A DNA stretch of 64,000 bases from an uncultured Chloroflexia bacterium (GTDB lineage Bacteria > Chloroflexota > Anaerolineae > Promineifilales > Promineifilaceae). Made by a program: the position numbers and the translations under genes. Shown here one piece after another: positions 10,951-64,000 of the stretch (positions are counted from its first letter, which is position 1; every line of letters begins with the position of its first letter). The notes under the pieces were generated by a model. That model was given only the letters and a program-made list of their open reading frames with translations, was not told the origin of the DNA and did no database searches. The stretch is from contig CAVOGX010000012.1 of NCBI GenBank assembly GCA_963695505.1, forward strand, positions 120,768-184,767, written 5' to 3'.

Positions 10951-11934
<984 letters not shown>

Positions 11935-11951
11935 TTTTAGTCTCCTTGAAT

Positions 11952-12030: not shown

Positions 12031-12031
12031 T

Positions 12032-15497: not shown

Positions 15498-15520
15498 AAA
15501 GGTTTGATTGAAGAGGGTAA

Positions 15521-16228: not shown

Positions 16229-16283
16229 TTTTCCCTCACATAGTTAACAGTGTCCAGGCCACAGGGTATGCTGGCCTGATAAG

Positions 16284-25555: not shown

Positions 25556-25785
25556 TCAAATACCTTTACATCACTGTTTTTTTGCAAGCTGCAAAACGAA
25601 GGAGAGTATAACAGTCATCAAATTACCCGTCAAAAGGGGCCGGTTCTGGGTGAATTTTGGGCTGTTGGGGCACAAATTGCTTGCCTCTCAGAGGAGTTTG
25701 CTCTAAGATGTGGTGACTCTAGAGAGAAAAATCGACTTGTCGGTTTTTGTGAGAGGAAATCTTTTTCTAAAAAGGAAGGTAAACA

Positions 25786-25980
25786 ATGGCATTTAGTTTT
25801 ACAAATTCAAAAGGACGTACTTACTTTTTGCACAAGCGTGACACGCAGTTGAAGAACGGCCGTTCCCAAACCATTTACTTCTTTGCCAAAGAGGTGAAGC
25901 CTGGGGCAATTGACGCCGTGCCAGCCGGGTACGCTGTGTCTGAAAGCCGCAATGGCCTGCCTGTTCTAAAGAAGAAATAA
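25786..25980 (+). CDS. Small conserved-looking hypothetical protein (64 aa)
   Basis: AAGGAAGG SD before the ATG, followed by a clean terminator. Confidence 0.55.
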   Translation: MAFSFTNSKGRTYFLHKRDTQLKNGRSQTIYFFAKEVKPGAIDAVPAGYAVSESRNGLPVLKKK

Positions 25981-26005
25981 ACAGGCGCCACCAGCAAAAT
26001 AAGCG

Positions 26006-26040
26006 AAAAAAGCCTCTTGCCACAGCTTGAGGCTTTTTTG
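26006..26040 (+). terminator. Rho-independent terminator
   Basis: AAGCCTC-ttgccacagctt-GAGGCTT followed by TTTTTG. Confidence 0.75.
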
Positions 26041-26052
26041 TTAGGCAGGCGG

Positions 26053-34924: not shown

Positions 34925-35255
34925 AATATTTGTGCATGCAATTAGAGTTATTGTATAATTTTTTTGCGTTTACCCTCTTCTAGGCAATGTTAATTGCTGT
35001 TCTACACTATCTGCAGGAAGAGGCAGAGATATCAAACCAAAGATGCGCAACATTCCACAAGCTATCCACTCAAATCGATGCAGTCATTGTCTGATAAGGA
35101 AATCGTTATAAAGGGGGTGGTAATCAAAGAATAAATTGACCCATTGTTCTGTTTCCCATCATAAACGGCCGTAGTTGTGGCAAAGTTTAAAACTTTACCG
35201 CACATTACAAAACGGCCAGTTCACCACTTTAACCATTTTCTTGAGGAGGAAAAAC

Positions 35256-38200
35256 GTGTTAAAAAAACCAAGATTCAAGTTGATTTTGTTGGTTCTTGCC
35301 CTAATTGTAGTTCTGGTTGGTGTATCTGTCGCCTCTGCGCAAGAACGCACACGTGCAGAAGTGCCTGATCGCCCAGTGCCTGCCGCTGTCGAAACTGCGC
35401 GACTCGATGCACCAATCACCGTTGAGGGCATGGCTGCACCAAGCAAACTAAGCCCGACCCTTTTGGATGCTGAAGGTCCCCAAGAAGTCATCATCCGTCT
35501 AACCGTTGCTTCTACAGCCGAATTGACTGGTGATGCTGCGCCCCGTTTGCAATCGCTGCAAGTCAACAGTCGTCAGCCAGCAGCAAGCCGCCCTCATTCG
35601 CAGCGCCAAAGCATTGGACCCCTCGGTCAATGTACTGGGGCAAACTAGTAAAGTTCTCAATGCTGTCATGATGGAAGTGGATGCTGCAGTTCTGGACGAA
35701 TTGGCTAACCTTTCGGCTGTCGCTTCAATTAACCCTGTCAAAAATTACGAAATGGACCTGAGCGAAACTGTGCCCTATATCGGCGCAGCGGCAGCACAAG
35801 CCTTGGGGTTTGATGGCTCTGGTATCAGAGTTGCCATTCTGGATAGTGGTATTGACTACACCCATGCCAACTTGGGTGGTGGCGGCACCATTGCCGATTA
35901 CGATGCCGCTTATCTCGACCCAGCCTCTCGCGACGGCCTCTTCCCCACCGCCAAGGTAGTGGAAGGGTATGATTTTGTTGGCGAAATCTGGCCTTCCGGC
36001 CCTCTGCAGCCAGATGAAGACCCCATCGATTTTCAGGGACATGGCACACATGTAGCCGACATTGCCGGAGGCTTGGGTGGTGTTGCCCCTGGTGCAGAAC
36101 TGTATGCTGTTAAAGTATGTTCGGCCGTATCAACCTCCTGCAGTGGCGTAGCCCTCATTCAGGGTATGGAATATGCCATTGACCCTAATGGTGATGGCGA
36201 TCTCAGTGACCACGTAGATATTGTCAACATGTCATTGGGTTCAAACTATGGCCAGGCATTTGATGACGATCTGGCCCAGGCTGTCGAAAACGCCACGGCG
36301 GTTGGCGTTCTCACAGTTGCCTCTGCCGGTAATGGGTCGGATAAACCTTATGTGACCGGTACGCCGGCCGCGGCTCCTTCGGCTCTCTCCGTTGCCCAAA
36401 CCAACGTACCTTCGGCCTTCCAGCCATTAATGCAGGTCATTTCTCCTGCTAGTATTGCCGGTGACTATGCAGCCGTGTACCAGCCCTGGTCTGGTGAACT
36501 GACCAGCGTCATTGAAGCGCCCGTTGTCTACGGCGTTGACGGCAATACTCTGGGTTGTACGCCTTTCGCTCCAGGGTCTGTGGATGGCATGATTGTTTTG
36601 GTTGATCGCGGCTCGTGTTCTTTCAGCGTGAAAATTGACAATATCGGCCAGGGTGGCGGTGTGGTTGGTATCATTGGCCTGGTTGCCCCTGGTGATCCCT
36701 TTGCTGGTGGTTTCGGCGGCGGCAATCCTGTCATTCCCGGCTACATGATCAGCCAGGCAGATGCCAACACGATCAAGAGTGGCCTGGCAGAGGGTGTTGT
36801 AGCCCGCTTCGATCCCGACTATGGCATTGCTTTGGTAGGGCACATGGTGGGCTCTTCATCCCGCGGCCCGTCCATGAATGGCAACTTGATTAAGCCCGAA
36901 ATTGGAGCACCGGGTGCATCGGTCTCCGCCATCGTAGGCACAGGCGACGGCACTGGTCCCTTCGGCGGCACTTCTGGCGCCGCCCCCATGGTAACCGGCT
37001 CTGCCGCTATCGTCCTTGGCGCTTTCCCGGACCGCATGCCCCATGAGGTGAAGGCGGTGTTAATGAACACGGCCGAAACCAACATCATGAATACGCCCGC
37101 TTTCTTTGGCGGTGACCTGGCCCCCATTGCCCGTATCGGGAATGGTGAAGTCCGGGTTGATCAGGCTATTGCTTCTCCTGCTGCTGCCTGGGACAGCAAT
37201 TCCCTTAGCGCCGCTCTCTCCTTTGGCTTCCACGACGTACCCAAGAAAAATGTGGTACAGCACCGCACAGTCACCGTACGCAATTACTCGGACACCGGCA
37301 TTCTCTACAACATCACCCCATCGTTCCGCTTTGTAGACGATGAGCTGAACGGCGCCGTGCGCGTCATTACGCCTAACGCCGTGTACGTACCAGCAAATGG
37401 GGATGCTAGCTTCCAAGTAACCCTGCAAGTGCGTGGGGACATGCTGCGCGAGTGGGGCATGAACTCTGGTTCTTTAGGCGCTGATCCGGCCACAATTACG
37501 TTGTTTGAGTATGATGGCTACATCACGTTGACAGAAGTCCTGAAGAATAAAGCTGAGGGCTCTTCAATTCACCTGGGCTGGCACATCCTGCCCCGTGGTG
37601 CAGGTGACGTCCTGTTGCGCGAAGCCGGCGACATTGTAAAGGTCTTTAATCGTGGCGTGGGGACAACGACTATCGAAAGCTACTCGCTGGTTGGTGTCAG
37701 TGACGACCTGCCTGAGGGCGGCCCTGGTGAACAAAACCCCACCCCCGACTTGCGGTACGTTGGTTATGCCACTTATCCTGTACCGGCTGGATATTGTAGT
37801 GCTAATCCGTCCTTTGTCATGGCTTTTGCCGTAAATACCTGGGAGCGTCAGACACACTCTGTTGCTCCAGCCTACTTCCAGTTTGACCTAGATACGGACC
37901 AGGATGGTTTCTTTGACTACTCAGTCTTCAACCTTGACCTGTCCTACCTGGGCGCATCATTTAACTTAAGCGACGGCCGTAACGCTACCATTGTACGTAA
38001 TTACAGCACTAACACATCCAGCGTCTTCTTCTACACCGACCATGAAACCAACAGTGGCAATACCGTGCTGTACATCTGTGGCGAGCAAATTGGCATGAAT
38101 GCCAGCAACTTCTTTGATCCCATGGACGTTTACGTGGCCGCCTTTGACCTGTACTTTGGCGGCGACTTCGACTTCCTGCCGGGCTTCACCATTTCCCCGC

Positions 38201-41220: not shown

Positions 41221-42036
41221 ATGGAGAAACTCATGAGCGCAAAAGTGATTACCGTTACTTCTGGCAAAGGCGGTGTGGGTAAAACAACCATCACCGCCAA
41301 CCTGGCCTCGGCATTGGCCATGCTAGACAAGCGCGTCGTCGCCATCGATGCAGACATTGGCCTGCGCAACCTGGATGTAGTAATGGGTCTGGAAAACCGC
41401 ATCGTCTACGATCTGGTTGACGTCATCGAAGGGCGCTGCCGCTTACGGCAAGCCATGATCAAAGACAAGCGCCAGCCCGAACTCTACCTCATTCCCGCGG
41501 CCCAAACGCGCGACAAAATGGCCGTCAGCCCTTCTGATATGATTCTGGTTTGCGACCAACTCCGTCAAGAAATGGACTACATCATCATCGACTCGCCCGC
41601 CGGCATTGAGCGCGGCTTCCGCAACGCCATTGCCCCTGCCGACCAGGTGATGGTCGTCACCAACCCGGAAGTGTCGTCGGTGCGCGACGCCGACCGCATC
41701 ATTGGTCTGATTGAAGCAGAAGAGAAAGGCCCCGGCTACCTGATAGTTAACCGGTTAAAGCCTGCGATGGTAGCGCGTGGCGACATGCTGTCGGTCGAAG
41801 ATGTGCTGGATATTCTGGCTATTCAGCTAATTGGTGTTATTCCTGAAGACGAGTCGATTTTGGTTTCAACCAATCAAGGTTTACCGGTGGCCATGAGCAG
41901 CGTCAACGGGTCCAGCGCCAGCCAGGCATTTCGCAATGTGGCACAGCGTCTCACAGGGCAAGATGTGCCATTCTTGGACCTTTCAGCCAAGCCTGGCTTG
42001 CGCGGCTGGTTGAAAGGCTTGATGAGCAGCCGATGA
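41221..42036 (+). CDS. minD: Septum site-determining ATPase MinD
   Basis: VITVTSGKGGVGKTT deviant Walker A. The start may be ATG 41233. Confidence 0.95.
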   Translation: MEKLMSAKVITVTSGKGGVGKTTITANLASALAMLDKRVVAIDADIGLRNLDVVMGLENRIVYDLVDVIEGRCRLRQAMIKDKRQPELYLIPAAQTRDKMAVSPSDMILVCDQLRQEMDYIIIDSPAGIERGFRNAIAPADQVMVVTNPEVSSVRDADRIIGLIEAEEKGPGYLIVNRLKPAMVARGDMLSVEDVLDILAIQLIGVIPEDESILVSTNQGLPVAMSSVNGSSASQAFRNVAQRLTGQDVPFLDLSAKPGLRGWLKGLMSSR

Positions 42037-42043
42037 AGGAGTA

Positions 42044-42307
42044 TTGGGCATGAGTTGGCTAGGACAGCTTTTTGGAAAGAAAGAAAACAGCAGCTCGGTG
42101 GCTAAGAAACGGCTGCAAATGGTGCTGGTCCATGATCGAAGTGATATTTCTCCAGGCTTGTTGGAAATCATCAAGGATGACATTATTCAAGTGATTGTGA
42201 AACACCTGGCGATTGATCCTAACGCAGTGGAGGTGAATTTAAACCAGGAAGGGCAGGAGAGCTTTTTGGTAGCAGAAATTCCTTTGCCAGGAGGAAACAG
42301 CAGGTAG
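42044..42307 (+). CDS. minE: Cell division topological specificity factor MinE
   Basis: SSVAKKRLQMVLVHDR... is a typical MinE N-terminus; the gene follows minD. Confidence 0.85.
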   Translation: MGMSWLGQLFGKKENSSSVAKKRLQMVLVHDRSDISPGLLEIIKDDIIQVIVKHLAIDPNAVEVNLNQEGQESFLVAEIPLPGGNSR

Positions 42308-42473
42308 GCAGCGATTTCCCTGTATCAGGTTCCATTGCCAGCTAACTTTAGGCGATGAACAATAAAATGTCTCTCTTTAGCTTCCAGAAAAGTTAGGTTC
42401 GTGTCCCTTATCCCCCTGAGGGTTTCGTAAAAATCTTCGCCAAATCTTCCCCTTTTAATAAAATAGTATTGTT

Positions 42474-43582
42474 ATGACTGAAAGACCATCTGTCTGGCGA
42501 TACTTCGATATTTGGTTAACTGCCGCCGTTTTACTGCTTAATGCGTACGGTATTCTTGATGATCCGCAGCGCGGTTACTGGCGCGCCGGCGCTAGAAGGC
42601 CATCCTCAACGCCAGCTTTATTGGGCGCTTGGTGGCATTGTTGTCATGATCATTTTCGCCAGCATCGATTATCGTTATCTTGCATCTGCCCACTGGTACA
42701 TTTACGGCGCTCTGGTGCTCTCACTGGTTTTCGTTGTGGTCGCCGGGCAAATTAACAATGACGCACGCCGTTGGATTAGCTTCGGGATTTTTGAGATCCA
42801 GCCATCGGAATTCGGCCGTGTATTTCTAACCATGACCTTTGCTCAATTCTTGGCTCATCGCCGCGACCGTATTAACCAATTTTCGAACACGCTGGTTACG
42901 TTGGCCTATATTGGCCTGCCTGTGGGACTCATCTTTATCCAGCCAGACCTGGGTATGTCCATACTCTTTTTCGTTGTCTGGTTTGTCATGATTTGGCTGG
43001 CTGGTTTGCCTTTATCTCATTTTCTTACCCTTGGCCGTTATCGGCATCATAAGCATTGGCCTTGTCTATCCCAACCTGGCGGACTACCAAAAAGAACGTA
43101 TCACAACCTTTCTCAATCCAGAAGCAGCCGATGAAGAAGATGTATTTAACGTCGACCAGGCAGTGATCAGCGTTGGCACTGGCGGGCTGTTTGGTAAGGG
43201 TTACTTGCAAGGCACTCAAAGCCAGTTCGGGTTTTTGCGTGTGCAGCATACCGATTTCATTTTTTCTGTGGTCACAGAAGAAATGGGACTGATTTTTGGT
43301 TCTTTAGTGGTGCTGAGCCTGATGGGTTTTATTCTTTGGCGCATATTGCGCATCGCCAACATGACCCCAGACCCAACCGGGAAACTTCTGGTTAGCGGCA
43401 TAGCGGCCATTCTTTTCTTCCAGACCGTGGTGAGTGTGGGCATGAACGTGCGCCTGCTGCCGGTTACCGGACTCACGCTGCCGTTTGTCAGTTACGGGGG
43501 CAGCTCTCTCATCACACTGTTCATCGCCATCGGTGTGGTACAATCCGTCCTTATGCGACATCGCAAGCAAGACTTCGGTTAA
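42474..43582 (+). pseudogene. rodA: SEDS protein RodA/FtsW, 2 frameshifts as assembled
   Basis: FEIQPSEFGRVF, HTDFIFSVVTEEMG, LPVTGLTLPFVSYGGSS. Pieces are 42474-42755, 42541-43134 and 43031-43582. Confidence 0.85.
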
Positions 43583-43648: not shown

Positions 43649-45130
43649 ATGACTGTACGAGTACGCTTTGCCCCCAGCCCAACGGGGTATTTGCATATTG
43701 GCGGGGCGCGCACGGCGCTGTTTAACTGGCTTTTTGCCCGCAAGCATGGCGGGCAGTTTATTTTGCGTATTGAAGATACAGACCAAAAGCGCACGGTACC
43801 CGGTGCCATTGATGCAATCATGGATGGCTTGCGCTGGCTGGGTTTGGATTGGGATGAAGGGCCAGACGTTGGTGGCCCTTATGGTCCTTACATTCAAACG
43901 GAACGCGCAGACTTGTATCGACAGTGGGCTCATTGGCTGGTAGATAATGGTCACGCCTACAAATGTTTTTGCACGCCGGAGGAATTGGCAGCGATGCGCG
44001 AGGAACAGAAGGAGAAAAAGCTGCCGTTGGGGTATAACGGCCGTTGCCGCCACCTCTCTTCCGTCCAAATCACCGAAAAGGAGTCAGCAGGTCGCAACTA
44101 CGTGATTCGCTTCAAAATGCCCCAGGAAGGCGAAACGACCATTGAAGATGCTATTCGCGGCCCTATCACCTACCAGAACAGCCAGATAATTGACGCCGTG
44201 CTCCTCAAGTCTGACGGGCTGCCCACCTACCACCTGGCTAACGTCGTCGATGACCATTTCATGCGCATTTCCCATATCATGCGCGCCGACGAATGGATCA
44301 ACACCGCCCCCCTGCACATTAACCTTTACCAGGCTTTCGGGTGGGAGATTCCGCAGTATGCGCACCTTTCTCTGGTGATGAACCCCAGCGGCAAGGGCAA
44401 GCTCAGCAAGCGCACCCAATCTTTTGACGACGACGGGCAGCAAGTGCTGGTTAAGGTCGAAGAATTCCAGGAAGCAGGCTATTTGCCAGAAGCAGTGGTG
44501 AATTTTTTGGCAAACGTAGGGTATGCCACCGGCGATGACCGCGAAATATTTACGATTCAGGAAGCCATTGACAACTTCAAGCTAGAAAATATAAACCCCG
44601 CTCCCTCGCGTCTGCCTTACAGCAAGCTGGATTGGCTCAATGGGCAATACATTCAGGAAATGGAGCCGCAGGCGCTGGCCAAAGCTGTCAAGCCTTTTCT
44701 TGACGCCCAAGGTTTTGAGGTGAATGCCGAAGCGCTGCTGGTGGTTATGCCGGCTATGAGCAAGCGCCTCAAGCGGCTGCCGGAAGCCATTGACTTTTTG
44801 CGCTTCCTTTTCAATGACGTACCCCTCCAGGCCACTGCCGCAGACCTGACCCACAAGAAAATGCCCTTCGAGGCTGCCAAACGCGCCTATCAACAAGCGC
44901 GAGACTTCGTGGCCACTGTAGAGCCATACACGCTGGAAACCATCAGCACAGGGCTGATGAAAATTGGTGAAAGCGCCACTGAAAATGGCAAAGCCGGTCC
45001 CTTTTTAGGGCAACTGCGCTTTGCCATAACCGGGCAGCAGGTTTCGCCCCCGCTCTTTGAATCGATGCTGGCCTTAGGCCGTCCTCGTACCCAGGCCAGA
45101 CTCGATGAAGTGTTGGCTTTATTCACCTGA
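43649..45130 (+). CDS. gltX: Glutamyl-tRNA synthetase
   Basis: VRVRFAPSPTGYLHIGGARTALFNW (HIGH) and KLSKR (KMSKS). Confidence 0.95.
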   Translation: MTVRVRFAPSPTGYLHIGGARTALFNWLFARKHGGQFILRIEDTDQKRTVPGAIDAIMDGLRWLGLDWDEGPDVGGPYGPYIQTERADLYRQWAHWLVDNGHAYKCFCTPEELAAMREEQKEKKLPLGYNGRCRHLSSVQITEKESAGRNYVIRFKMPQEGETTIEDAIRGPITYQNSQIIDAVLLKSDGLPTYHLANVVDDHFMRISHIMRADEWINTAPLHINLYQAFGWEIPQYAHLSLVMNPSGKGKLSKRTQSFDDDGQQVLVKVEEFQEAGYLPEAVVNFLANVGYATGDDREIFTIQEAIDNFKLENINPAPSRLPYSKLDWLNGQYIQEMEPQALAKAVKPFLDAQGFEVNAEALLVVMPAMSKRLKRLPEAIDFLRFLFNDVPLQATAADLTHKKMPFEAAKRAYQQARDFVATVEPYTLETISTGLMKIGESATENGKAGPFLGQLRFAITGQQVSPPLFESMLALGRPRTQARLDEVLALFT

Positions 45131-45160
45131 GAGGCCGACCTTTGCAAATTTGAGTCAAAA

Positions 45161-45188
45161 AAGCCCCTGGCGTTTGCAGGGGCTTTTC
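45161..45188. terminator. Bidirectional intrinsic terminator between convergent genes
   Basis: AAAAAAGCCCCTG-gcgttt-GCAGGGGCTTTT. Confidence 0.7.
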
Positions 45189-45219
45189 CATTTAAGCAAT
45201 GGGAAGGTACGAAAAGTGT

Positions 45220-45804
45220 TTAAGCTTGCCGGCGACGGTGTACGAGAACGAAACTGATCCCTGCCAATAATAACAGGCTCATACCAATTGGTAAGAAGGT
45301 GTTGGTAGTTGTCACATCAATCTGTTGCAATTGAATGGCTGTAGGGCCAGTGCCTGATTGAATATTACCAAAACTCATATTTGAGTTAATAAAAAGCAAA
45401 TTACGGATAGGGGCAGTTAATGTATCAGGGGGTGTATTTACTGACCCCGCACCCCATTGAACATACAAGCACACATAATCAGTGCCATCAGGCGAAGTTA
45501 GACCCCCTAACAATAAATCATCTGTTAACCAGGGATCAGCAAACCGCCCAGCATTCGCGGGATCATATCCTGCATCCCCTTCGCCAGGAACAACAATTGT
45601 GGCATAAATCTCATCCCCAATAATTGCTCCGCTAGCATCACAATTGATAGCATAGATATTTGCTCCGTTTGTCCATGGCAAATCGCTATCTCCGTCACCT
45701 GGCAATCCGTCAAACAGACGTCCAGAAACACCAGTATGGGCATATGCTGGTAGTACAACAATTAAAAGCATTATTACAGCTATGAGAATTGCATGTTTTT
45801 TCAT
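45220..45804 (-). CDS. Secreted hypothetical protein with a C-terminal TM anchor and basic tail
   Basis: Signal MKKHAILIAVIMLLIVVLPAYA. C-terminus FLPIGMSLLLLAGISFVLVHRRRQA. Visibly AT-rich relative to the flanks. Confidence 0.6.
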   Translation of the reverse strand: MKKHAILIAVIMLLIVVLPAYAHTGVSGRLFDGLPGDGDSDLPWTNGANIYAINCDASGAIIGDEIYATIVVPGEGDAGYDPANAGRFADPWLTDDLLLGGLTSPDGTDYVCLYVQWGAGSVNTPPDTLTAPIRNLLFINSNMSFGNIQSGTGPTAIQLQQIDVTTTNTFLPIGMSLLLLAGISFVLVHRRRQA

Positions 45805-45955
45805 TTTGATCTCCAATTTCTTTTCATTGATCGCATCTTGTAAATAAATTATATGTTGACGAATGGAATTTATTGGTTAGAAATTGGTTATGATTGGGGG
45901 CATGGAAAGTGGATGATCTTATTATGATGTCAATTTTACGGTAAAGGAGCAGGCC

Positions 45956-46414
45956 ATGATACAGGTTGGAGATATGGTGCCAGATTTTGCGCTGGTGTCG
46001 GATGAAGGTAAGACAATAAAGCTGGCAGATTTGCGGGGGAAGCAAGTTGTGTTGTTTTTCTACCCCAAAGCGGGAACCTCAGGCTGCACCACCCAGGCGT
46101 GTGGCTTTCGGGACAGCTTTCCCGTCATTGAGGCAGCTAACGCCACGGTGTTGGGCATCAGCCCTGATGAACCGGCGAAGCTGGCTAAGTGGAAGGCGAA
46201 AGAAAATTTACCCTACACTCTCCTTTCAGATCCTGATCACGCGGTGGCCGAAGCCTACGGCGTGTGGGGGGAGAAGAAGATGTACGGTAACACCTACATG
46301 GGTATCATTCGCAGCCATTTTGTGATTGATGCAGAGGGCACGCTGGCCGACGCGCAGGTGAAAATCAGCCCCAAGGACAGCGTGGCGAAGGCAGTAAAGT
46401 TTCTTGGGCAGTAG
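45956..46414 (+). CDS. bcp: Thioredoxin-dependent peroxiredoxin Bcp
   Basis: VVLFFYPKAGTSGCTTQACGFRD. Confidence 0.9.
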   Translation: MIQVGDMVPDFALVSDEGKTIKLADLRGKQVVLFFYPKAGTSGCTTQACGFRDSFPVIEAANATVLGISPDEPAKLAKWKAKENLPYTLLSDPDHAVAEAYGVWGEKKMYGNTYMGIIRSHFVIDAEGTLADAQVKISPKDSVAKAVKFLGQ

Positions 46415-55057: not shown

Positions 55058-56106
55058 GTGATTACGAAGCCATCCCCCATGATGAAGCAGTCTCTGGCAA
55101 GAAAACCCGTCGTGGTCGCCGCGTACTGGGGCTTGTCCTTCTCATTACTTCACTGCTCCTGGCAATTTATTTGTTGGTGGCCTATATGGGCTGGCAAAGC
55201 GGGCAGGCTTTACTGGTTGAAAAACAGCAAACCGGTTTGAGCAACCTGGTCAGCCGCCAGATCGAATTGGCCCAGGAAGATATCGCCCAGGGCAGCTACT
55301 CGCTGGCCATTCGCCGCCTGGAATGGGTGCTGGAGCGCTCGCCGGGCAACAATCAGGCCGAGGTACTGCTGCTGCAAGCCCAAGAAGCGCTGCAAATTGT
55401 GCTGACTCCTGACCTGGCTGCTGCTTCGCCAACGGCTACAATCGCGCCTATGCCTTCACCAACGCCTGGCGCTATCTCCGACCCAGACCAGGAGCTGCAG
55501 CGCATTCGCCGCCTGGTGGTTATTGAAGCCTGGGAGGACGCTATGGAAGCGCTTGTTTCCTTCCAATTGCAATTTCCTGATTTCGAGCGCCAGGAAACCA
55601 ATCGAATGCTTTACGATGCCTATCTGAACCTGGGCTTGCAGAATGTAGAGGGGGAGTACGTGGAATTGGGGTTGTATTACCTGGGTCTGGCCGAAAATTT
55701 GGGTGATTTGCCCCAAGAAGCAGAAGATTACCGGCTGTGGGCAGATTGGTATTTGCAGGGTATAGGCTTTTATGGTGTGAATTGGGAATTCGCCACGGGC
55801 TATTTTCGAGATTTATGCCTGGTGGCGCCTTTTTATCAGGCTTCCTGTGATTTGCTGTACGAGTCGCTGGTAGCCCTAGGAGACCAGTATGCCGCCGCAG
55901 GTGAGTGGTGCCCGGCACAGGAACAGTACCAGGAAGCCCGGCAGCAGCAGCGCAGCGTTGCCCTGATAGATAAGCTTGAAACGGCCGTTACCAACTGCAG
56001 CAGCGCCACGCCAACGCCGTCCGTGATTACCAATACGCTGCCCCTTAGCCAAACCCAACAGTTTGTACCGCCATTTTTTGTCACGCCGACGCCGCTTTCT
56101 CCATAA
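55054..56106 (+). CDS. Membrane-anchored TPR-like protein
   Basis: ATGA start/stop overlap with the GT4 gene. One TM (LGLVLLITSLLLAIYLLVAY) is followed by helical-repeat sequence. Confidence 0.55.
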   Translation: MSDYEAIPHDEAVSGKKTRRGRRVLGLVLLITSLLLAIYLLVAYMGWQSGQALLVEKQQTGLSNLVSRQIELAQEDIAQGSYSLAIRRLEWVLERSPGNNQAEVLLLQAQEALQIVLTPDLAAASPTATIAPMPSPTPGAISDPDQELQRIRRLVVIEAWEDAMEALVSFQLQFPDFERQETNRMLYDAYLNLGLQNVEGEYVELGLYYLGLAENLGDLPQEAEDYRLWADWYLQGIGFYGVNWEFATGYFRDLCLVAPFYQASCDLLYESLVALGDQYAAAGEWCPAQEQYQEARQQQRSVALIDKLETAVTNCSSATPTPSVITNTLPLSQTQQFVPPFFVTPTPLSP

Positions 56107-56158
56107 GAAATCATTATGCATTTTGTCACTTGCCGCAGTACGCGCTATAAACAAAGCT

Positions 56159-57553
56159 ATGCCTGAACTTGGTGAACCTCTCAGCGACCGCGAAATGGAC
56201 GTGCTGGCCTGCATGGTGCAAGGCGCGCAAAATAAAGAGATTGCCGCGGAGCTATTCATTAGCGAAAACACGGTGAAAGTACACCTGCGGCGTATTTACA
56301 CGAAGCTGGGCGTCTCTTCGCGTACCGAAGCCACCACCGTTGCCCTGCAAAAAGGGCTGGTAGCCGTGCCCGGCCTGGAAACAACCAGCCCCGTGGCGGA
56401 CGACCCAGACCCGGCAGCAGCAGACGTGGGTGTCGGGGAAGGGGAAGCCGAGTCTGGGGCAATATCCGACAATGTGCCTGAAACGGCCGTTTCTGACCTA
56501 TCTCCTGCTGCTCGCCCTGCGCCATGGCGCAATCTTGGTTTGGGAATCGCTCTCGTCGTCATTGTGGCGCTGCTGGGATTTGTTGTGTGGCAGCAGCAAA
56601 ACGTCATTGCGCCAGATGATGACCCGCAGACGTGCAGCGAGCGCCCCTTAGGCGATTCCCGCTGGTTGGTTAGCCAGGCTATGCCCGAGGGGCGAATGGG
56701 TATGGCCACGGCAGCCGTGGGCCTGGACATTTACCTCATTGGGGGAGGCAGCGGGCAGGATGCCGTGAACCAGGTCGACGTATACGATACGGCAAACTGC
56801 CAGTGGCGCTCGGGCGCGCCCAAGCCAACGGCCGTTTCCGACACGCGGGCAGCCGTCCTCTTCGGTGAAATCTATATTCCGGGCGGGCGGGGCGCAGATG
56901 GTTTACCCACCAGCACTGTGGAAGTGTTCAGTCCCGCCAACAACCTGTGGCGGACCATCGCCCCCCTGCCCGCACCCAACAGCGGCGGGCTGGTACTGGA
57001 ACAGGGCGGCTTGCTCTACCTCTTTGGCGGTTGGGATGGCGAGAGCTATTTGGCCACAGCTTACGCCTACAACCCGGCTCTGGACAGTTGGGAAACCCTG
57101 CCGCCTATGGGCCAGGCGCGCGCATTTGCCACCGGCGGCGCCCTCTCCGGGCTGCTTTTTGCGGTCGGTGGTTACGATGGCGCCAACGAACTGAATACCT
57201 GCGCCGCGTTCGATCCTGCTGGCAGCGCCTGGCAAGCCTGCCCCGGCATGCTTCAGCCCCGCGCCGGGGCCGGAGCAGTCGTCATCCTCAACAAGCTGTA
57301 CGTGATGGGCGGGGGCATGCAGGCCGACAGCCTCATTTCCTACGGTGAAGAATACAATCCGGCTACCCAAACCTGGCAAGTCGTGGACACGCCCATGCTC
57401 GGGAATGCTGGAAGCTGGTTCTTACCGGGCATCGCCAACATTGAAACCCGCATCTATGCTTTTGGCGGCCGCCAAAACGAGACAGTGCTGGCCGACACCT
57501 ACGTGCTGCGGGCTGTCTTCCAAACCTTTTTGCCCGCTATGCCCAATCAGTAA
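56159..57553 (+). CDS. LuxR-type HTH + TM + Kelch-repeat beta-propeller protein
   Basis: LSDREMDVLACMVQGAQNKEIAAELFISENTVKVHLRRIYTKLGV, TM GLGIALVVIVALLGFVVW, and repeated ..YLIGG/..YIPGG/..YLFGG/..FAVGG/..YVMGG Kelch blades. Confidence 0.75.
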   Translation: MPELGEPLSDREMDVLACMVQGAQNKEIAAELFISENTVKVHLRRIYTKLGVSSRTEATTVALQKGLVAVPGLETTSPVADDPDPAAADVGVGEGEAESGAISDNVPETAVSDLSPAARPAPWRNLGLGIALVVIVALLGFVVWQQQNVIAPDDDPQTCSERPLGDSRWLVSQAMPEGRMGMATAAVGLDIYLIGGGSGQDAVNQVDVYDTANCQWRSGAPKPTAVSDTRAAVLFGEIYIPGGRGADGLPTSTVEVFSPANNLWRTIAPLPAPNSGGLVLEQGGLLYLFGGWDGESYLATAYAYNPALDSWETLPPMGQARAFATGGALSGLLFAVGGYDGANELNTCAAFDPAGSAWQACPGMLQPRAGAGAVVILNKLYVMGGGMQADSLISYGEEYNPATQTWQVVDTPMLGNAGSWFLPGIANIETRIYAFGGRQNETVLADTYVLRAVFQTFLPAMPNQ

Positions 57554-60118
57554 TGGCCCAATCTGGGGGTATGTACCAGGCCAATTTTGCGCGATACGGC
57601 CGTTTCCTGCGCACACTGGCCTTGTTTCTCGGTGTTTTGATTTTTCTGGTCTGGGGTGTGTGGGGCACGTTGCCGCACACCGCACTGCGCAGCCTGTTCA
57701 GCCCCATCACGGCCGTTGACATCAACCAGCACCGCCGCGACACCCCCGCCCCCATACCCACAGGCGCTTTCACCCTGCAGCAAACCTTCACCCCCCGCTG
57801 GAATGGCTTTCGTGAGCTGGAAGTTCGCTTTTATCGTGTTGCAGAAACGCCGAATGCCGGCAAGCATTACCTTGCGCTTGCAAGACGCCGGTGGGCAAAC
57901 CATCAGCGAAGCCACGCTGCCCAACGACACAATAGCCCAGGACCAGCGTCACGTGATGCAATTTCCGCCCCAGGCAAACTCTGCCGGGCAGGTGTACACG
58001 CTGGCTGTTAGCGGAGATGCGTGCCAACGAAGTGTCGCTTTGGGGGTATGGCTTGGATGCCCATGCGGGGGGCGCGCTGGCCCTGGTTTACGGCCCGTTG
58101 GCGGCCGAAACGGCCGAAACCCCCACCAGCGCCGCCGACCTCACCTTTACCACCCGCTACCACCTAACCGGGAAAGATGCCCTGGCCTACCTGGGTCAAA
58201 CGTTAACCCGGCAGGGAAGCCTGCTGCTGCTCACCCTGCTCTTTTTGCTGCTGCCTGGCGCGCTGCTGCTGCTGGGGTGGCGCAGCCCTCTTTCACATTG
58301 GGACGCCGCAGCCTGGACCGGCACAGCTTTGGCCCTGGGAACGGCCGTCTGGCCTCTGCTTTGGCAGTTTCTGACCCTGTTAGGCGGGCGCTGGCGCGGG
58401 TGGTCTCTGTGGGCGGTACTCATCCTGGGCTGGCTGGCCGTCCTTTGGCTGCTTTGGAAAAGATGGAACGCAGAGTTTCGCAGAGAAAAAACACCAAAAG
58501 CGCTGTTTGCTCCTCCGCGCCCTTGCTCCTCTGCTCCCTTGCTCCCCCACGTCTCCGCTCCCTTGCTTCCCCGCTCCTCCGCGCCCTTGCTCCTCGTTCT
58601 GCTGCTCGCCGTAGGGCTGGCGGTGCGGCTGCTGGCGGTGCGGGACATTAACATCCCGCCCTGGGTAGACGCCAGCCGCCACGGCCTGATTACGGCCGTG
58701 ATGCGCGACAGCGGCCAGGCCATCAGCGACTACGGGAGCTATTTGCCCGTTACCCGTTTTCCCTACCATTACGGCTTCCACACCCTTTCCGCCAGCCTGG
58801 CGCTGCTGTCGGGGCGACCCTTGCCAGAGCTGCTGCTCTTTTTGGGGCAGTTACTCAATGCCCTGGTGCCGCTGACCACCTATGCGGCGCTGTGGCTGCT
58901 GACGCGGCGGCCTATGGCCGGGCTGCTGGGGGCCTTTTTCGTGGCGCTGCCCTTTTTGTTCCCGGGCTACTACGCCACCTGGGGCCGCCTGACGCAGCTC
59001 ACAGCCATGCTGCTCATGCCGCTGGCCCTGGCCCTGACCTGGCTGGTGGTGCGCGGGGGCCGAGTTGGCGGCGGGGCTGGTGGCTGCTGGCACTGCTGGC
59101 GGCGGGGCTGTTTTTGGTGCATTTTCGCGTGTTTACCTTTTATTTGCCTTTTGCGGCGCTGGTGTGGCTGGCGAGCCGGGGGCGCAACGGCCGTTTCCTG
59201 GCTTTGGCGGCTGCGGTGGGGCTGCTGCTGGTCAGCCCGCGCCTCTGGCAGTTACTGTCCGTCACCGACCCGGCGCGGGCCATCAACGCCGGCCCCAGCG
59301 ACTACAACGCCTTCCCCACCGGTTACCTGGAAGCGGGCTGGGAGCAGGCCTTTGTGGCCCTGGGCGCCATTTGCCTGGCGCTGGCCCTGGCAGGCGCACT
59401 CAAACGCCGCCGCTGGGCGGCGCTGCCCCTGCTGCTGGCGGCCTGGGTGGCGGCCCTTTTCTTGCTGCTGGCGGGCGAGCGGCTGGGGCTGCCGGAAACC
59501 TGGGTGATTAACCTGAACAGCATGTACATCACCCTCTTTTTGCCCCTGGCCATGCTGCTGGCTGTAACGGCCGTTCAGGTGTGGCAATGGCTGGCGCGGC
59601 AGCGCTGGTGGCTGCAAATGACGGCCAGCTTGCTGGCGGGCGGGCTGCTGGCGGCCCTGTTCCTCTTTGGCGTGCGCAATCAGGTCAACATCCTCAATCC
59701 GCAGACGGTTTTGGCGGAGCCGCCGGACCTGGCGGGCATAGCCTGGGTCGATGCCCACCTGCCGCCGGAGGCACTCATTGCCGTGAGCAGTTGGCAATGG
59801 CTGGGGCAAACCTGGGCCGGGCAGGACGGCGGGGCGTGGCTGACGCCTTTAACCCAGCGCCAAACCACCACGCCCCCGGCCGACTACATTTACAACCGGG
59901 ATTTGGCGGAAGAGGTGCGGGCTTTCAACGAAACGGCCGTGGCCGTGGCCGACTGGAGCGACCCGGCCCAGGCGGAATGGCTGCGGCAGCAGGGGGTCAC
60001 CCACGTCTTTGTGGGCGCGCGGGGCGGCTTTTTTGACCCGGCGGCCCTGGCCCGCAACCCGGAATTGGAATTGCTGTACGCGGAAGATGGCGTATTTGTC
60101 TTTGCCGTGCGCGACTAA
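57553..60118 (+). pseudogene. Large GT-C-like membrane glycosyltransferase, about 3 frameshifts as assembled
   Basis: TAATG overlap with the upstream gene. Colinear pieces are 57553-58011, 57656-58651 (part), 58017-59507 and 58892-60118. Many TM segments are followed by a soluble C-terminus. Confidence 0.65.
58509..58595. repeat. 8-nt periodic tract (GCTCCTCC/GCGCCCTT/GCTCCCTT...) in-frame in a CDS
   Basis: Read as APPRPCSSAPLLPHVSAPLLPRSSAPLL. Confidence 0.75.
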
Positions 60119-60204
60119 CGTTTAGCTGAGGAACGCAGCCGCTGGCCATTAACAGCCAGGCCCCGCTTGTTTCAACTTTTTGGTTGGCGATGGTGGTTTT
60201 TTTG

Positions 60205-60234
60205 TTGACTCACATCAAAGCTTCTGCATATACT
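60205..60234 (+). promoter_or_regulatory. Sigma70-like promoter (copy A)
   Basis: TTGACT - 18 nt - TATACT, conserved in copy B. Confidence 0.6.
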
Positions 60235-60266
60235 GTCGTAGAATGCCTCATTCGTAGAATGCCTTT

Positions 60267-60320
60267 ATGCGGCGGCTGGTAAGCTGGATGGTAAGGGTTG
60301 TTTTTCACCGCACCGCATGA
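60267..60320 (+). other. Conserved 17-codon mini-ORF / quasi-palindromic leader element (copy A)
   Basis: ATG CGG CGG CTG ... ACC GCA TGA = MRRLVSWMVRVVFHRTA. It has the same length and frame as copy B despite many substitutions. There is no obvious SD. Confidence 0.35.
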
Positions 60321-60361
60321 ATAGCTTAATTCGTTAGGGAGCGTATTAGATCGAAGCGCAG

Positions 60362-61108
60362 ATGCACCAAAAACAGATTTCTCTCGTCAGGTCAATGATT
60401 GAAAAAGAAGTAAGCGAAAATTGGGCGCGTCTATACAAAGTGCCCAGTACATTTACGTGGAAATGCCTTGACCATCTCAGCAGTCTGAAACCCTCTAGCC
60501 AGGAGAAAGTGTTTGCGGAAATTTCATTGAGAGCTCCGATCATGCTGGGATCAGTAAATCCACCAACAAAGTGGGATGAGTCGATCCTGAAGCATTTCTA
60601 CGAAGGGGTCCTTCAATCTCCGAGTGAGCATATATCATCAAGACTACTTCGCGGGATGCTCGCATCAAAGCAGGTGGATGGGGCGGAAAGTATGTTTGCG
60701 AATTTGTCTGATGAGATGGTTGAAAAAGCTAAATCCATCAACCCCACCAAGGCATCTGAAATCCGAAAGGTAGTTAAGCGTGAATTCGCAGATCACTTTG
60801 GCAGCAATCCAGTAAATTTTGGGGGAGGGACTTGGAAGTATGAGGGGGAATCATCGTCAAGGCGCATATCCGTTCTAATCGATTATGGCGGCCTTGGTGA
60901 TCAGCTGCGCTACTGGGTCGAGTTTCAAGATCAAACCAATATGCTGCACCCGAGGATGTTGACTTATGAAGGACTGCTTGGAATGGGGCATGGCCGTTGG
61001 GATTATGTCACAGCGGACAATCTTGTAGCTAGTATCCAACTGCTTCGGGAAATGATCGAAGAATTGGCTACTATACCAGATCGGCTCAAATCATTTGGCT
61101 CCATCTAA
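60362..61108 (+). CDS. Orphan hypothetical protein (248 aa) in the AT-rich island
   Basis: Intact ORF, GC visibly lower than the host, no ACGGCCGT motif and no recognisable domain. Confidence 0.6.
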   Translation: MHQKQISLVRSMIEKEVSENWARLYKVPSTFTWKCLDHLSSLKPSSQEKVFAEISLRAPIMLGSVNPPTKWDESILKHFYEGVLQSPSEHISSRLLRGMLASKQVDGAESMFANLSDEMVEKAKSINPTKASEIRKVVKREFADHFGSNPVNFGGGTWKYEGESSSRRISVLIDYGGLGDQLRYWVEFQDQTNMLHPRMLTYEGLLGMGHGRWDYVTADNLVASIQLLREMIEELATIPDRLKSFGSI

Positions 61109-61115
61109 CCACTCC

Positions 61116-61281
61116 CTGGAGCGACTCGGCCCAGGCGGCATGGCTGCGGCAGCAGGGGGTCACCCACGTCTTTGTGGGCGCGCGGGGCGGCTTTTTCGAC
61201 CCGGCGGCCCTGGCCCGCAACCCGGCAATGGAATTGCTGTACGCTGATGATGGCGTATTTGTGTTTGCCGTGCGTGATTAG
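61116..61281 (+). pseudogene. Relic 3' fragment (~55 codons) of a diverged allele of the GT-C gene
   Basis: Reads WSDSAQAAWLRQQGVTHVFVGARGGFFDPAALARNPAMELLYADDGVFVFAVRD*, versus the native WSDPAQAEWLRQQ...NPELELLYAEDGVFVFAVRD*. Several of the differences are synonymous. Confidence 0.85.
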
Positions 61282-61368
61282 CGTTTAGCGGAGGAACGCA
61301 GCCGCTGGCCACCGGCAGCCAGGCTCAACTTGTTTCATCTCTGTTGGTTGGCGATGGTGATTTTTTTG

Positions 61369-61398
61369 TTGACTAACATCAAAACTTCTGCATATACT
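61369..61398 (+). promoter_or_regulatory. Sigma70-like promoter (copy B)
   Basis: TTGACT - 18 nt - TATACT. Confidence 0.6.
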
Positions 61399-61532
61399 GT
61401 ACCTGGAAATGGGTCGCCTTTGGAGGTTAGGTTAGCCAGGAAAATGCCTGAATCCTCAAGGGAAAACAGACCCGCTTTCCCAACTTTGTTCAACCGCGAT
61501 TTAACTAAATGCCGCATTTGGAAAATGCCATT

Positions 61533-61586
61533 ATGCGGCGGCTGACGCACTGGTTGATGAAGGTCGTTTTTCACTGCACCGCATGA
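61533..61586 (+). other. Conserved 17-codon mini-ORF / quasi-palindromic leader element (copy B)
   Basis: MRRLTHWLMKVVFHCTA. Confidence 0.35.
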
Positions 61587-61645
61587 AACGCTTAATTCGT
61601 TAGCTAGCTTTTCGATACAATGAAGTGGTGAACAGAAGAGGAATC

Positions 61646-63394
61646 ATGTTTATTGATGGGCTAGGCATTTCAAACTACAGAAGTTTCGGGAATGAGATTC
61701 AACTGATGAGTCCATTCGCGAAAATAAATCTTTTCATCGGGAAAAACAACTCGGGGAAATCCAATATCCTTCTGTTTTTTTCAAACCATTATCAACAAAC
61801 ACTTAATGCTTTTCATAACAAAAATGCGAGTTTGAGTCTACAAGCATTAGATCGACCTGTTGGGATCAGTTCTGACAAAATAAGAATTGCATTCCCACTT
61901 GTCCCAGAACGTAGAGCCTATAAAACTTTACTTGACAAATGTGAAAAGGCATTAGGCTCATCCCAATTATTAGTGAAAGTATTGAGTTCGAAAGCTTTTT
62001 CATTTGGAGCGGAGGATATTTGGTTATCTTTTGAGTCCCAATGGGATGGGAATAAAATACTGATCTTTCCCAGTGGCATTTTCAAATCAATTCAGTCTGA
62101 AAATGTTTTGAGAGAAGGAGAGTGGCAAAAACTTTGGAGTTCACTGGTAGAAAAATCAGGTGGAAGTATTAATAGACATTGGATACCTGAGACCATCGAT
62201 TGGATACGAAGGAACACCGAATTCGCTATTCCGAAGGTAACATTAATTCCGGCAATTCGTCGAGTACAAGCTGGTCAATCTGAATCTGATGATTATAGCA
62301 GTTTGGGAATCATCGATCGCCTTGCGAAACTGCAAAACCCAGATTATGACCAACAAGGTTTGAAGGATGCCTTTGAAGAAATTAATAATTTTCTCCGCAA
62401 CGTAACCGGAGATAATTCTGCTACTCTTGAAATACCATATGAGCGTGACAAAATAATTGTTCACATGAATAACAAATCTTTGCCACTCAGCTCTTTGGGG
62501 ACTGGCATTCATGAAGTCGTAATATTGGCTTCTGCTGCAACAGTTTTGCAGGATCAGGTTATTTGCATTGAAGAACCTGAATTGCATTTACATCCTTCGT
62601 TGCAAAAGAAGTTAATCCAGTACATGGTAGAAAAAACTAATAACCAATATTTTATTACTACACATTCAGCGCATTTGTTGGATACTACAAATGCTGCGAT
62701 ATTTCATGTTTACTTGCGAGATGGGGTGTCTATTATCAGTGCTGTAAATTCTGATTCTCAGAAATCTGCTATTTGTGCTGATCTAGGATATCGCGCATCA
62801 GATTTGTTGCAGACAAATTGTGTTATTTGGGTAGAAGGTCCATCAGATCGTATATATCTAAATCACTGGATAAAAGCACAAGATCCTGATCTTTTCGAAG
62901 GTGTTCACTATTCCATAATGTTTTATGGTGGAAGATTGCTCAGCCACCTAAGCGCAGATGATCCGGAAATTGACGAGTTTATTTCTCTTCGACGATTAAA
63001 TAGAAATATTTGTATTTTGATGGATAGTGATCGTCAAAAACCGCGCTCCCGAATAAATCAGACGAAAAAACGTGTTCAGGATGAGTTCGATAGAGGTCCG
63101 GGGTTTTCGTGGGTGACTAAAGGGCGAGAAGTGGAAAATTATATTGACCCAGAACAACTTGAAACGGCAGTGTGTGAAGTTCATTCACAAGCAACCGGAT
63201 TGATTGATACAAATATGTATGCCAATTGTCTTAAACGGTACAAAACAAAAAAGGGTATTTCAAATCAAGGCGCAGATAAGGTTAAGGTTGCACGTGAGGT
63301 AGTTAAGTCGCCAGCTAATTTGGATGTGCTTGACCTAAAACAAATGATATCGAAAGTTGTTAACTTCATTCATGAATCAAATGACATAAGGTAA
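61646..63394 (+). CDS. OLD-family nuclease: ABC-type ATPase fused to a Toprim domain
   Basis: Walker A FIGKNNSGKSN, signature-like LSSLGTGIHE, Walker B VICIEEPELHLHP, H-loop ITTHSAHLL, Toprim Glu CVIWVEGPSDRIYL and DxD ICILMDSDRQ. ATG 61646 follows AGAGGA (the ORF track gives GTG 61625). Strongly AT-rich. Confidence 0.85.
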   Translation: MFIDGLGISNYRSFGNEIQLMSPFAKINLFIGKNNSGKSNILLFFSNHYQQTLNAFHNKNASLSLQALDRPVGISSDKIRIAFPLVPERRAYKTLLDKCEKALGSSQLLVKVLSSKAFSFGAEDIWLSFESQWDGNKILIFPSGIFKSIQSENVLREGEWQKLWSSLVEKSGGSINRHWIPETIDWIRRNTEFAIPKVTLIPAIRRVQAGQSESDDYSSLGIIDRLAKLQNPDYDQQGLKDAFEEINNFLRNVTGDNSATLEIPYERDKIIVHMNNKSLPLSSLGTGIHEVVILASAATVLQDQVICIEEPELHLHPSLQKKLIQYMVEKTNNQYFITTHSAHLLDTTNAAIFHVYLRDGVSIISAVNSDSQKSAICADLGYRASDLLQTNCVIWVEGPSDRIYLNHWIKAQDPDLFEGVHYSIMFYGGRLLSHLSADDPEIDEFISLRRLNRNICILMDSDRQKPRSRINQTKKRVQDEFDRGPGFSWVTKGREVENYIDPEQLETAVCEVHSQATGLIDTNMYANCLKRYKTKKGISNQGADKVKVAREVVKSPANLDVLDLKQMISKVVNFIHESNDIR

Positions 63395-63555
63395 AGGGCA
63401 CCAGCCAACTTGGGTTGTGTCTGACCAGGGCTAAGCCCTGCGGGGAAGCGGCGCGATTTTTGATGAGTTAGCCTGAGGCAAAGGATCGTCAGGGTCAAAC
63501 CCGCCCCGGCAGCTAAGCCAACCGTTAGGCAGCAACCCCAGATGGAGGTTCAGAT

Positions 63556-64000
63556 ATGGTGAACAGAGAGCGGCGCGATTGGTCACACTTCGCCCTGCTG
63601 CTCGTCGATGTGCAGCAGAGCTTCTGGCCGGTGCAGGGCAGGCCGGACTTCCCCGACTTCCCGGCAAACGTAGCGCGCCTGCTGGCTCTCTGCCGGTCCG
63701 AAGGGCTGGAAGTCATCCACGTGCGCTCCCGGTTCAAGCCGGACAAGTCGGATTGGATGCTCATGTACCGCCTGCGCGTCCCCGTCAGCTCATCACCCAT
63801 GCGTAGCCGGGCAGGAGGGAGAAAAGCCGGCGCCCTTTGCCGCCAGCGAACCTGGGGAGCTTGTTGTCTACAAGCAGACCTTCGATGCCCTGCATACGCC
63901 GGAACTGGTTCCCTATCTGCGCGAGAATGACAAGCGGGTCCTCTTGGTGGCCGGGCTGCTTACTTCGGTTTGCGTCTTCTTTACCGCAGCATCGGCTGCC
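63556..64000 (+). pseudogene. Isochorismatase-family cysteine hydrolase (partial at window edge, frameshift near 63790)
   Basis: FALLLVDVQQSFW... and, in another frame, ...KQTFDALHTPELVPYLRENDKRVLLVAGLLTSVCVFFTA. Confidence 0.7.

Follow-up and report, generated by a model that had tools for sequence, protein, structure and literature searches.

A stand-alone OLD-family gene and an orphan gene, each behind a copy of a duplicated host block, in a low-GC segment of an uncultured Chloroflexia genome

Layout of the low-GC segment

We analyzed a 64,000-nt stretch of contig CAVOGX010000012.1 from the assembly of an uncultured Chloroflexia bacterium (GCA_963695505.1), which is called the window in its whole length, and within it a low-GC segment that carries an orphan gene, geneA, and a gene for an OLD-family ATPase-Toprim protein, geneB. 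The GC content per interval was 0.60-0.69 up to ~60100 and then 0.37-0.48 across most of 60200-63400. As the original prediction from the letters alone had stated, this segment holds two genes, both of them ORFs on the + strand: geneA (60362-61108) encodes a 248-aa orphan of an uncharacterised family, and geneB (61646-63394) encodes a 582-aa stand-alone OLD-family protein. With a GC of 0.38 and a GC3 of 0.31, geneB lies under all 750-nt intervals of the remaining 59 kb (minimum 0.413); the GC of geneA is 0.463, and the host gene adjoining the segment has a GC of 0.67 and a GC3 of 0.83. The GC content is raised again, to ~0.55-0.59, at 61000-61400 by a host-derived block that lies between geneA and geneB. 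The AT-rich island that had been predicted was thus found as far as the drop in GC is concerned, but it is not uniform and does contain host-like sequence.

The gene upstream of the segment is a large membrane-protein gene (57400-60118), whose orthologues were found in Ardenticatenaceae and other Chloroflexota metagenome-assembled genomes. It shares 83% amino-acid identity with the orthologue in one related locus (L007) and 74% with that in another (L008), and the upstream synteny with both is kept and stops exactly at the stop codon of this gene. In L007, the orthologous gene is followed directly by convergent NUDIX and NusB genes. GeneA, geneB, the promoter-leader block described below and the isochorismatase-like right flank are absent from all 15 related loci, which identifies geneA and geneB as recent lineage-specific acquisitions at a synteny break.

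The order of the segment from 5' to 3' is block copy 1, geneA, block copy 2 and geneB. The block is ~390 nt long and stands once ahead of each gene (copy 1, 59953-60342; copy 2, 61116-61608). It appeared as a direct repeat in which 59953-60236 returns at 61116-61400 with 91% identity and 60242-60342 returns at 61508-61608 with 80% identity, while a repeat search and an alignment of the window gave no block copy right of geneB. All parts of both copies are read on the + strand. The coding part of copy 1 (59953-60118) comprises the final 55 codons and the stop codon of the upstream gene, as established by the direct repeat, the alignment and the orthology to the gene 3' ends in L007 and L008. 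It is followed by an intergenic part (60119-60236), delimited by the direct repeats and containing a promoter match at 60205-60234, and by a leader (60242-60342), defined by the repeat, which stops ~20 nt ahead of the geneA start codon. Copy 2 begins 8 nt past the geneA stop codon with a detached duplicate of the same 55 codons and stop (61116-61281), which was recognized from the repeat alignment and from tblastn with the L007 and L008 proteins as queries (match at 61117-61278). Behind it lie an intergenic part (61282-61400, from the repeat alignment) with a promoter match at 61369-61398, a 107-nt stretch in the promoter-leader interval that is found in copy 2 only (61401-61507, a gap in the alignment of copy 1 and of L006, a contig introduced below) and the repeated leader (61508-61608), which stops ~38 nt ahead of the geneB ATG. 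In the 537-nt spacer between geneA and geneB lie the detached fragment of the host gene and the second copy of the promoter. The predicted two-gene island is better described as two independent single-gene modules with this duplicated host segment between them.

The promoter match, TTGACT-N18-TATACT, is sigma-70-like and identical in both copies, and with 10/12 consensus matches it is the best of the region. As each gene has its own promoter copy, separate transcription of the two would be expected, and judged from this arrangement geneA and geneB are probably transcribed separately. RNA structure in the leader of both copies and of L006 was no better than in shuffled sequences (z -1.6 to +1.3), and an Rfam scan of 59900-63600 returned no family at its gathering score and only sub-threshold noise; a structured RNA or riboswitch in the shared leader was rejected for want of evidence. 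Both leaders contain a tiny upstream ORF (60259-60282, MPLCGGW*; 61525-61545, MPLCGG*; MLLCGGW* in L006) and the motif AATGCC twice, 16 nt apart; with three sequences, these features are indistinguishable from chance.

GeneB encodes an intact OLD-family protein

The ATG at 61646 was preferred as the start codon of geneB because GAGGA lies 5 nt upstream of it and homologues start with MFIDG; an alternative GTG at 61625 would give a protein of 589 aa. The protein is composed of an ABC ATPase with an inserted domain (~aa 1-345), a Toprim domain (~aa 385-500) and a helical C-terminus. In a 28-sequence alignment, Walker A (GKNNSGKS, aa 32-39, 61739-61762 on the + strand, as for the following motifs), the signature region, Walker B with the D-loop (CIEEPELHLHP, aa 307-317, 62564-62596) and the H-loop (region TTHSAH, aa 338-343) were invariant, and so were the Toprim residues E397, G398, D401, D460, S461, D462 and E495/E497. 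Toprim motif 1 (WVEGPSD, aa 395-401, 62828-62848) aligns with the EG motif of GajA and P2 Old, and the Toprim DxD motif (MDSD, aa 459-462, 63020-63031) was located in the same alignment. Thus, all ATPase and Toprim motifs quoted in the original prediction are present. [quoted passage not shown]

Database searches led to the same family. Pfam matched AAA_15 (1.4e-23, aa 1-344) and AAA_21, and the Toprim half alone gave weak OLD-like_TOPRIM and GajA matches only. Sequence and profile searches of the PDB reached GajA, PtuA, Eco8 OLD, TsOLD and AriA; the best E values of the profile search were ~1e-7 to 1e-8, AriA was weaker (~1e-4), and no class stood out. NCBIfam matches stayed far under their cut-offs, with retron_eff_Eco8 as the best (58.9 bits vs 250). 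The AlphaFold (AF2) model of the protein had a pLDDT of 86.4 and was matched by Foldseek to SMC/Rad50, PtuA and GajA heads (E~1e-12). Motifs, profiles, the structural model and gene context agree on the OLD-family ATPase-Toprim identity that had been proposed.

GeneB is a class 1 OLD by gene context

OLD proteins are assigned to classes by gene context: class 1 is a single gene, class 2 comes with GajB, class 3 is found in a retron and class 4 is PARIS (PMC10568477, PMC12392090). The ORF list and Pfam showed no GajB-, reverse transcriptase (RT)- or AriB-like ORF near geneB, which agrees with the earlier statement that a UvrD-like GajB, a reverse transcriptase and a separate AriB are missing here. 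By the context-based definition geneB is therefore a class 1 (stand-alone) OLD, with none of the context features of classes 2-4 found at the locus. Defence examples of class 1 OLDs are known (PMC10568477, PMC12392090, PMC13261556); work on this class has covered only a few proteins (P2 Old, TsOLD, Vc OLD and YbjD), and the cited review leaves broad defence by single OLDs open. Nicking or exonuclease activity on DNA, dependent on ATP or not, and the exclusion of phages are further marks of the class.

Like the class 1 OLDs of phage P2 (Old), Thermus scotoductus (TsOLD, PDB 6P74), Vibrio cholerae (Vc OLD) and E. coli (YbjD), geneB is a single gene without a conserved partner, and it shares with them the N-terminal ABC ATPase with an inserted domain followed by a C-terminal Toprim domain. 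P2 Old and geneB are of nearly equal length (586 vs 582 aa) and collinear between the ABC signature and the first Toprim motif (hhalign probability 91%); the alignment with YbjD was weaker (46% probability), and TsOLD gave a profile match with E = 4e-7. All of them are nevertheless very distant from geneB in sequence, with recognisable similarity in the motif regions only, and the geneB host, an uncultured Chloroflexota lineage, is unlike those of the named class 1 proteins.

Gabija GajA (class 2) provided the best full-length structural matches of geneB (8u7i_A and 8sm3_A, 666-679 aligned columns, E~1e-12) and its best PDB sequence match (6e-7). In Gabija, however, a UvrD/PcrA/Rep-like gajB adjoins gajA, and no such gene lies beside geneB or its homologues; the only neighbours of geneB are geneA, which has no domain matches, and the isochorismatase-like gene. 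The class 2 Toprim domain has an extra ~50-residue helical insert (PMC10568477). In the secondary structure of the predicted geneB model, two short helices (aa 430-451) lie between Toprim strands 422-426 and 455-459, with ~28 residues between the strands, so that geneB may lack this insert. Retron Eco8-type OLD effectors (class 3) have the same two-domain layout as geneB, and Eco8 OLD structures were among its matches, but class 3 retrons contain an adjacent RT gene and msr/msd RNA, for which neither an RT-like ORF near geneB nor an Rfam family at gathering score was found.

The class that scored best by one measure was PARIS (class 4), which would make geneB a fused AriA-AriB tRNA cleaver triggered by a phage anti-restriction protein instead of a DNA-cutting class 1 OLD. 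PARIS AriA/AriB, including fused AriAB, has an AAA_15-type ABC ATPase and a Toprim domain as geneB does, fused PARIS genes are known (PMC12392090), and AriA structures were among the PDB sequence matches. Furthermore, the AriA model was the best PADLOC match of geneB (1.7e-25), and the fused AriAB model matched too (2.6e-17). The AriA match is uninformative, however, because the model has the same size and coordinates as generic Pfam AAA_15, and as AAA_21. PADLOC models of AriA, GajA, NsnB, retron ATPase-Toprim, AbiLi and Old all matched geneB, mostly in the Walker B-to-Toprim region, with comparable scores for GajA, retron and Old, and the fused AriAB model covers aa 299-468 only, as do models of other classes. 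The Toprim domain of PARIS is of the AriB/DUF4435 type, whereas the Toprim half of geneB alone matched neither AriB nor DUF4435; a separate AriB gene, which PARIS may have, is lacking at the locus, and AriA stands under GajA, PtuA, Eco8 OLD and TsOLD in the profile-search ranking. We consider a PARIS-type identity quite unlikely and retain the class 1 assignment.

Distribution and putative function of geneB

More than 5,865 relatives of geneB with 50-64% identity were found in Planctomycetota, Cyanobacteria, Deltaproteobacteria-like lineages, Chloroflexota, Nitrospira and others, and the homologues are AT-shifted relative to their hosts. Relatives are also carried by 31 IMG/VR viral contigs, most of them full-length, at 34-48% identity. 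The neighbours of geneB homologues are different in every independent locus and include no helicase, RT or AriB. When all ORFs within 3 kb were clustered for 31 full-length geneB-homologue loci, the sole recurrent family consisted of phage repressor-like HTH proteins in five viral contigs. This repressor-like HTH family was rejected as a conserved partner of geneB and taken as a location pattern, and the stand-alone OLD that had been offered as one of two alternatives in the original prediction was supported. In the five contigs (L041, L046, L047, L048 and L055, at ~4000-5000 in each) the geneB homologue lies directly downstream of the repressor-like gene, which encodes an XRE-type HTH protein of 111-115 aa or a 223-aa cI/LexA-like protein. 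These neighbours place the geneB relatives in prophage immunity regions, and the downstream position suggests expression from the lysogen; the setting is comparable to that of P2 old, a lysogenic-conversion gene of P2. A different setting was seen in L025-L028 (1096-4530), where a geneB homologue (54% identity) lies beside an HNH_2 nuclease gene, a gene for a ~800-830 aa protein without Pfam match and a DDE transposase fragment, and which may be a defence island.

The absence of geneB from the 15 related loci and its strongly foreign composition support, at the level of sequence, that it is an accessory gene acquired horizontally, as had been predicted, and not a core gene of the lineage. With P2 Old, Vibrio cholerae OLD and E. 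coli YbjD taken as analogues, geneB would most likely be a single-protein defence against phages or mobile elements. If it works as P2 Old, TsOLD, Vc OLD and YbjD do, the protein would form a dimer or oligomer via the domain inserted in the ATPase, and ATP binding and hydrolysis in the ATPase dimer would gate metal-dependent cleavage by the Toprim domain. Upon phage infection, the Toprim domain might then cleave DNA by a two-metal mechanism, through nicking or 5'-3' degradation.

A housekeeping or DNA-repair/maintenance role was weighed against this defence function. Many members of the geneB family stand alone among ordinary metabolic genes, the window has no defence island, and the archaeal OLD-family ATPase Cran1 is described as having a non-defence role in the cell cycle (PMC12796447). 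On the other hand, geneB is patchy and accessory, with none in related loci at this site, its composition is foreign here and in other hosts, relatives reside in prophage immunity regions beside repressors, and the characterised bacterial stand-alone OLDs act against phages according to the literature. A housekeeping role is unlikely on this balance, and a defence function is preferred. With geneB, the stand-alone OLD nucleases gain an intact member of a branch that is large, widely transferred and uncharacterised. The family counts its members in thousands, some of them beside prophage repressors, and is a reasonable target for testing, although this copy is not exceptional.

GeneA is probably a separate cargo gene

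The geneA protein had no Pfam, PADLOC, NCBIfam or PHROG family, and Pfam gave none for 60 diverse relatives either. A profile search retrieved 373 representative clusters of stand-alone proteins of ~250 aa. Its AF2 model was confident (pLDDT 91.7, pTM 0.88), and Foldseek found no significant match for this fold in PDB or BFVD; a PDB profile search was also negative. The homologues of geneA lie in unrelated contexts, have a GC content like that of their hosts and show no flanking duplications elsewhere. In L002 (1039-1776), a geneA homologue with 40% identity lies between two ABC permease genes, with an 8-nt overlap with the second, in an apparent nucleoside uptake and salvage operon that includes cytidine deaminase and pyrimidine-nucleoside phosphorylase genes; this operon is the sole hint of a functional context for the family. 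With ~370 representative clusters, a confident model and no fold match, the geneA family is a candidate for structural and functional annotation.

GeneA and geneB could be thought to form a new two-gene system, for example a sensor or antitoxin with an OLD effector, as the two are adjacent on the same strand, are both compositionally foreign and have the promoter-leader sequence in common. GeneA is moreover nearly unchanged between two strains: the window and L006 differ at 5/747 positions of geneA and at 31/628 of the flanks (p = 5e-7). However, the other gene was present in none of 8 geneA-homologue loci and in none of 39 geneB-homologue loci, the two genes are kept apart by the spacer with its host gene fragment and second promoter copy, and their GC differs (0.46 in geneA, 0.38 in geneB). 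That geneA homologues match the GC of their hosts and geneB homologues do not also points to separate origins. A two-gene system is extremely unlikely in view of these results, and the undescribed pairing with the upstream orphan that the original prediction had entertained is not supported, since co-occurrence is nil and each gene has its own promoter block. We conclude that geneA is probably a separate cargo gene and not a partner of geneB. The case warns that foreign genes may lie side by side without forming a system.

The geneA-copy 2 junction recurs in an independent assembly

L006 (GCA_041552295.1), a 1,374-nt contig of an independent assembly, is 97% identical to 59987-61361 of the window and runs from block copy 1 through geneA into the start of copy 2; the junction from the geneA stop codon to the coding tail of the upstream gene is thereby present in two assemblies. 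The two ends of the contig are 94% identical to each other, indicating that it is not a circular or collapsed-repeat artefact. The right-hand copy in L006 mixes positions that resemble copy 1 with others that resemble copy 2, a mosaic that would be expected if repeat copies exchange sequence. Within geneA, the 5 differences between the window and L006 (3 synonymous, 2 not) amount to 99.3% identity, and the contrast with the flanks is also found against the left flank alone (p = 0.0014). Purifying selection, conversion among repeat copies or recent module exchange can contribute to this low divergence, the counts being too small to separate them.

The second assembly bears on the question of whether the tandem is an assembly artefact in which a strain haplotype that has geneA behind the host gene was joined to another that has geneB there. 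In favour of an artefact, the sequence probably comes from a metagenome-assembled genome, single-base indels break the frames of flanking host genes, two of these indels lying at or beside G5 runs, which suggests an imperfect consensus, and the copy 2-geneB junction is seen in this assembly only. A simple strain bubble, by comparison, would not make a junction from the geneA stop codon to the middle of the upstream coding tail, and exactly this geneA-copy 2 junction is shared with L006. The copies differ by 7-20%, so that they would not be collapsed or mis-joined through k-mer identity, and host-like sequence lies on both sides of geneB. An artefact is highly improbable as the origin of the tandem.

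How the tandem arrangement may have arisen

The low-GC segment is probably a stack of two single-gene modules behind the upstream gene, both acquired horizontally and unrelated to each other, with geneB as a class 1 OLD and geneA as separate cargo. The duplication would then be the footprint of recombination on the host block, for which two routes can be proposed. In the first, DNA with geneA and a copy of the block would have been integrated by a single crossover (Campbell-type). In the second, the equivalent locus of a diverged relative, block and geneB, would have been imported, anchored by homology at one end and joined illegitimately at the other.

The coding parts of the two copies are 93.3% identical (pS 0.125, pN 0.041, ratio 0.33) and their intergenic parts diverge by 11.8%; this synonymous and intergenic divergence is 3-4x the non-coding divergence between the window and L006. 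The difference between ~12% synonymous/intergenic and 4% non-synonymous changes would rather suggest that copy 2 accumulated its changes as part of a functional gene in a different lineage. Greater similarity of copy 2 to the L007 orthologue would have hinted at a donor, but copy 1 is the more similar one (85.9% vs 83.4% for copy 2), and this pointer was dropped.

Several points speak against this account of stacked modules. The excess of third-position changes that would mark copy 2 as imported is short of significance (p = 0.077), so that the two copies may also go back to an older in-place duplication. A genome scan, a metagenome scan and a gene-tail protein search returned no single-cargo or empty version of this very locus, third strain or donor; the closest relative in these searches had 83% amino-acid identity, and none had the promoter-leader block. 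The copy 2-geneB junction is present in this assembly alone. The promoter is a consensus match only, in a region where 8 promoter-like sites were found vs 6.4 expected, that is, without enrichment. As to geneB, its Toprim half is divergent (Pfam OLD-like_TOPRIM 17-19 bits vs a gathering threshold of 23.2), the closest characterised proteins are remote (E ~1e-7), its subfamily is known from sequence and a predicted model alone, unlike the characterised class 1 OLDs, and the window has no other defence genes near it; the Cran1 precedent given above counts here as well.

Known integration processes resemble the arrangement in part. With Campbell-type integration or homology-facilitated illegitimate recombination it shares an insert flanked by a direct target duplication of several hundred bases, one junction without homology, 8 nt past the geneA stop codon, and diverged repeat copies with mosaic exchange. 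Neither ancestral single-cargo loci nor a donor were found here. Integron cassettes are likewise single genes stacked one way after a promoter, with a repeated element before each. Integrons, however, have IntI, attI and attC, whereas 56000-64000 is free of integrase ORFs and a structured repeat of the attC kind is missing; moreover, the repeated element here is a host gene end with a promoter, and each gene has its own promoter. An attC or integron-like site was examined since the leader homology ends in GTTAG, which is loosely core-like, and was rejected, as an inverse core, a fold and an integrase are all lacking. Integrative elements at tRNA genes or gene 3' ends bring an integrase and att repeats at both ends, and neither a tRNA, a nearby integrase nor a right-end repeat was found here. 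No tRNA gene occurs in the 64-kb window, and no recombinase-sized ORF was found in 56000-64000, the scanned part of the window, beyond genes syntenic with relatives. The expectation that integrase, tRNA and att-like repeats are all missing was accordingly right for the first two within these limits, but a ~390-nt direct repeat is present.

It is very doubtful that the block is a reusable, integrase-free landing pad at which single-gene cargo enters by homology with the block, brings or gains its own promoter copy, stacks and is exchanged between strains, and that geneA has a new single-gene function in defence or counter-defence. The duplicated promoter block is a small, clear example of unrelated cargo stacking at one site without a dedicated recombinase.

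Flanking genes and further observations

In L008, from a related Ardenticatenaceae genome, a different AT-rich gene (GC ~0.40, 11534-12217) for a 227-aa orphan without Pfam match follows directly after the orthologous upstream gene, and L018 also has a low-GC stretch at the corresponding site. The site itself may draw foreign single genes, and in more than one lineage.

The 'GT-C' label that had been given to the upstream gene was not confirmed, as its intact L007 orthologue gave a sub-threshold DUF6541 match only. In L007 and L008 this gene forms one ORF of 834-890 aa; here it is spread over three frames, through single-base indels near 57872, 58022 and 59065. Two of the three lie at or beside G5 runs and may therefore be consensus errors; the gene is either a real pseudogene or an assembly error, and the pseudogene question was dropped without conclusion for this reason. 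Inside the gene, 58507-58595 is a tandem tract, imperfect and with period lengths of 8, 16 and 24 nt (consensus TGCTCCCC). At this place the gene has 27 bases more than L007, and the L008 alignment has a gap; the tract may be one of the host tracts mentioned in the original prediction.

Further short low-GC patches of the window (minimum 0.40-0.46) are located at 34501-35500, 45101-46300, 15401-16300, 25301-26100 and 42001-42700. The ORFs 45220-45816, 35175-35648 and 34505-34813 in such patches had no Pfam match, and ORF 45956-46414 encodes an AhpC/TSA peroxiredoxin. To the right of geneB, the reading frame of the isochorismatase-like gene (63556-64000) shifts near 63780-63800, with a Pfam match confined to the N-terminal part in one frame and the C-terminal sequence typical of such proteins, VLLVAGLLTSVCV, in another.

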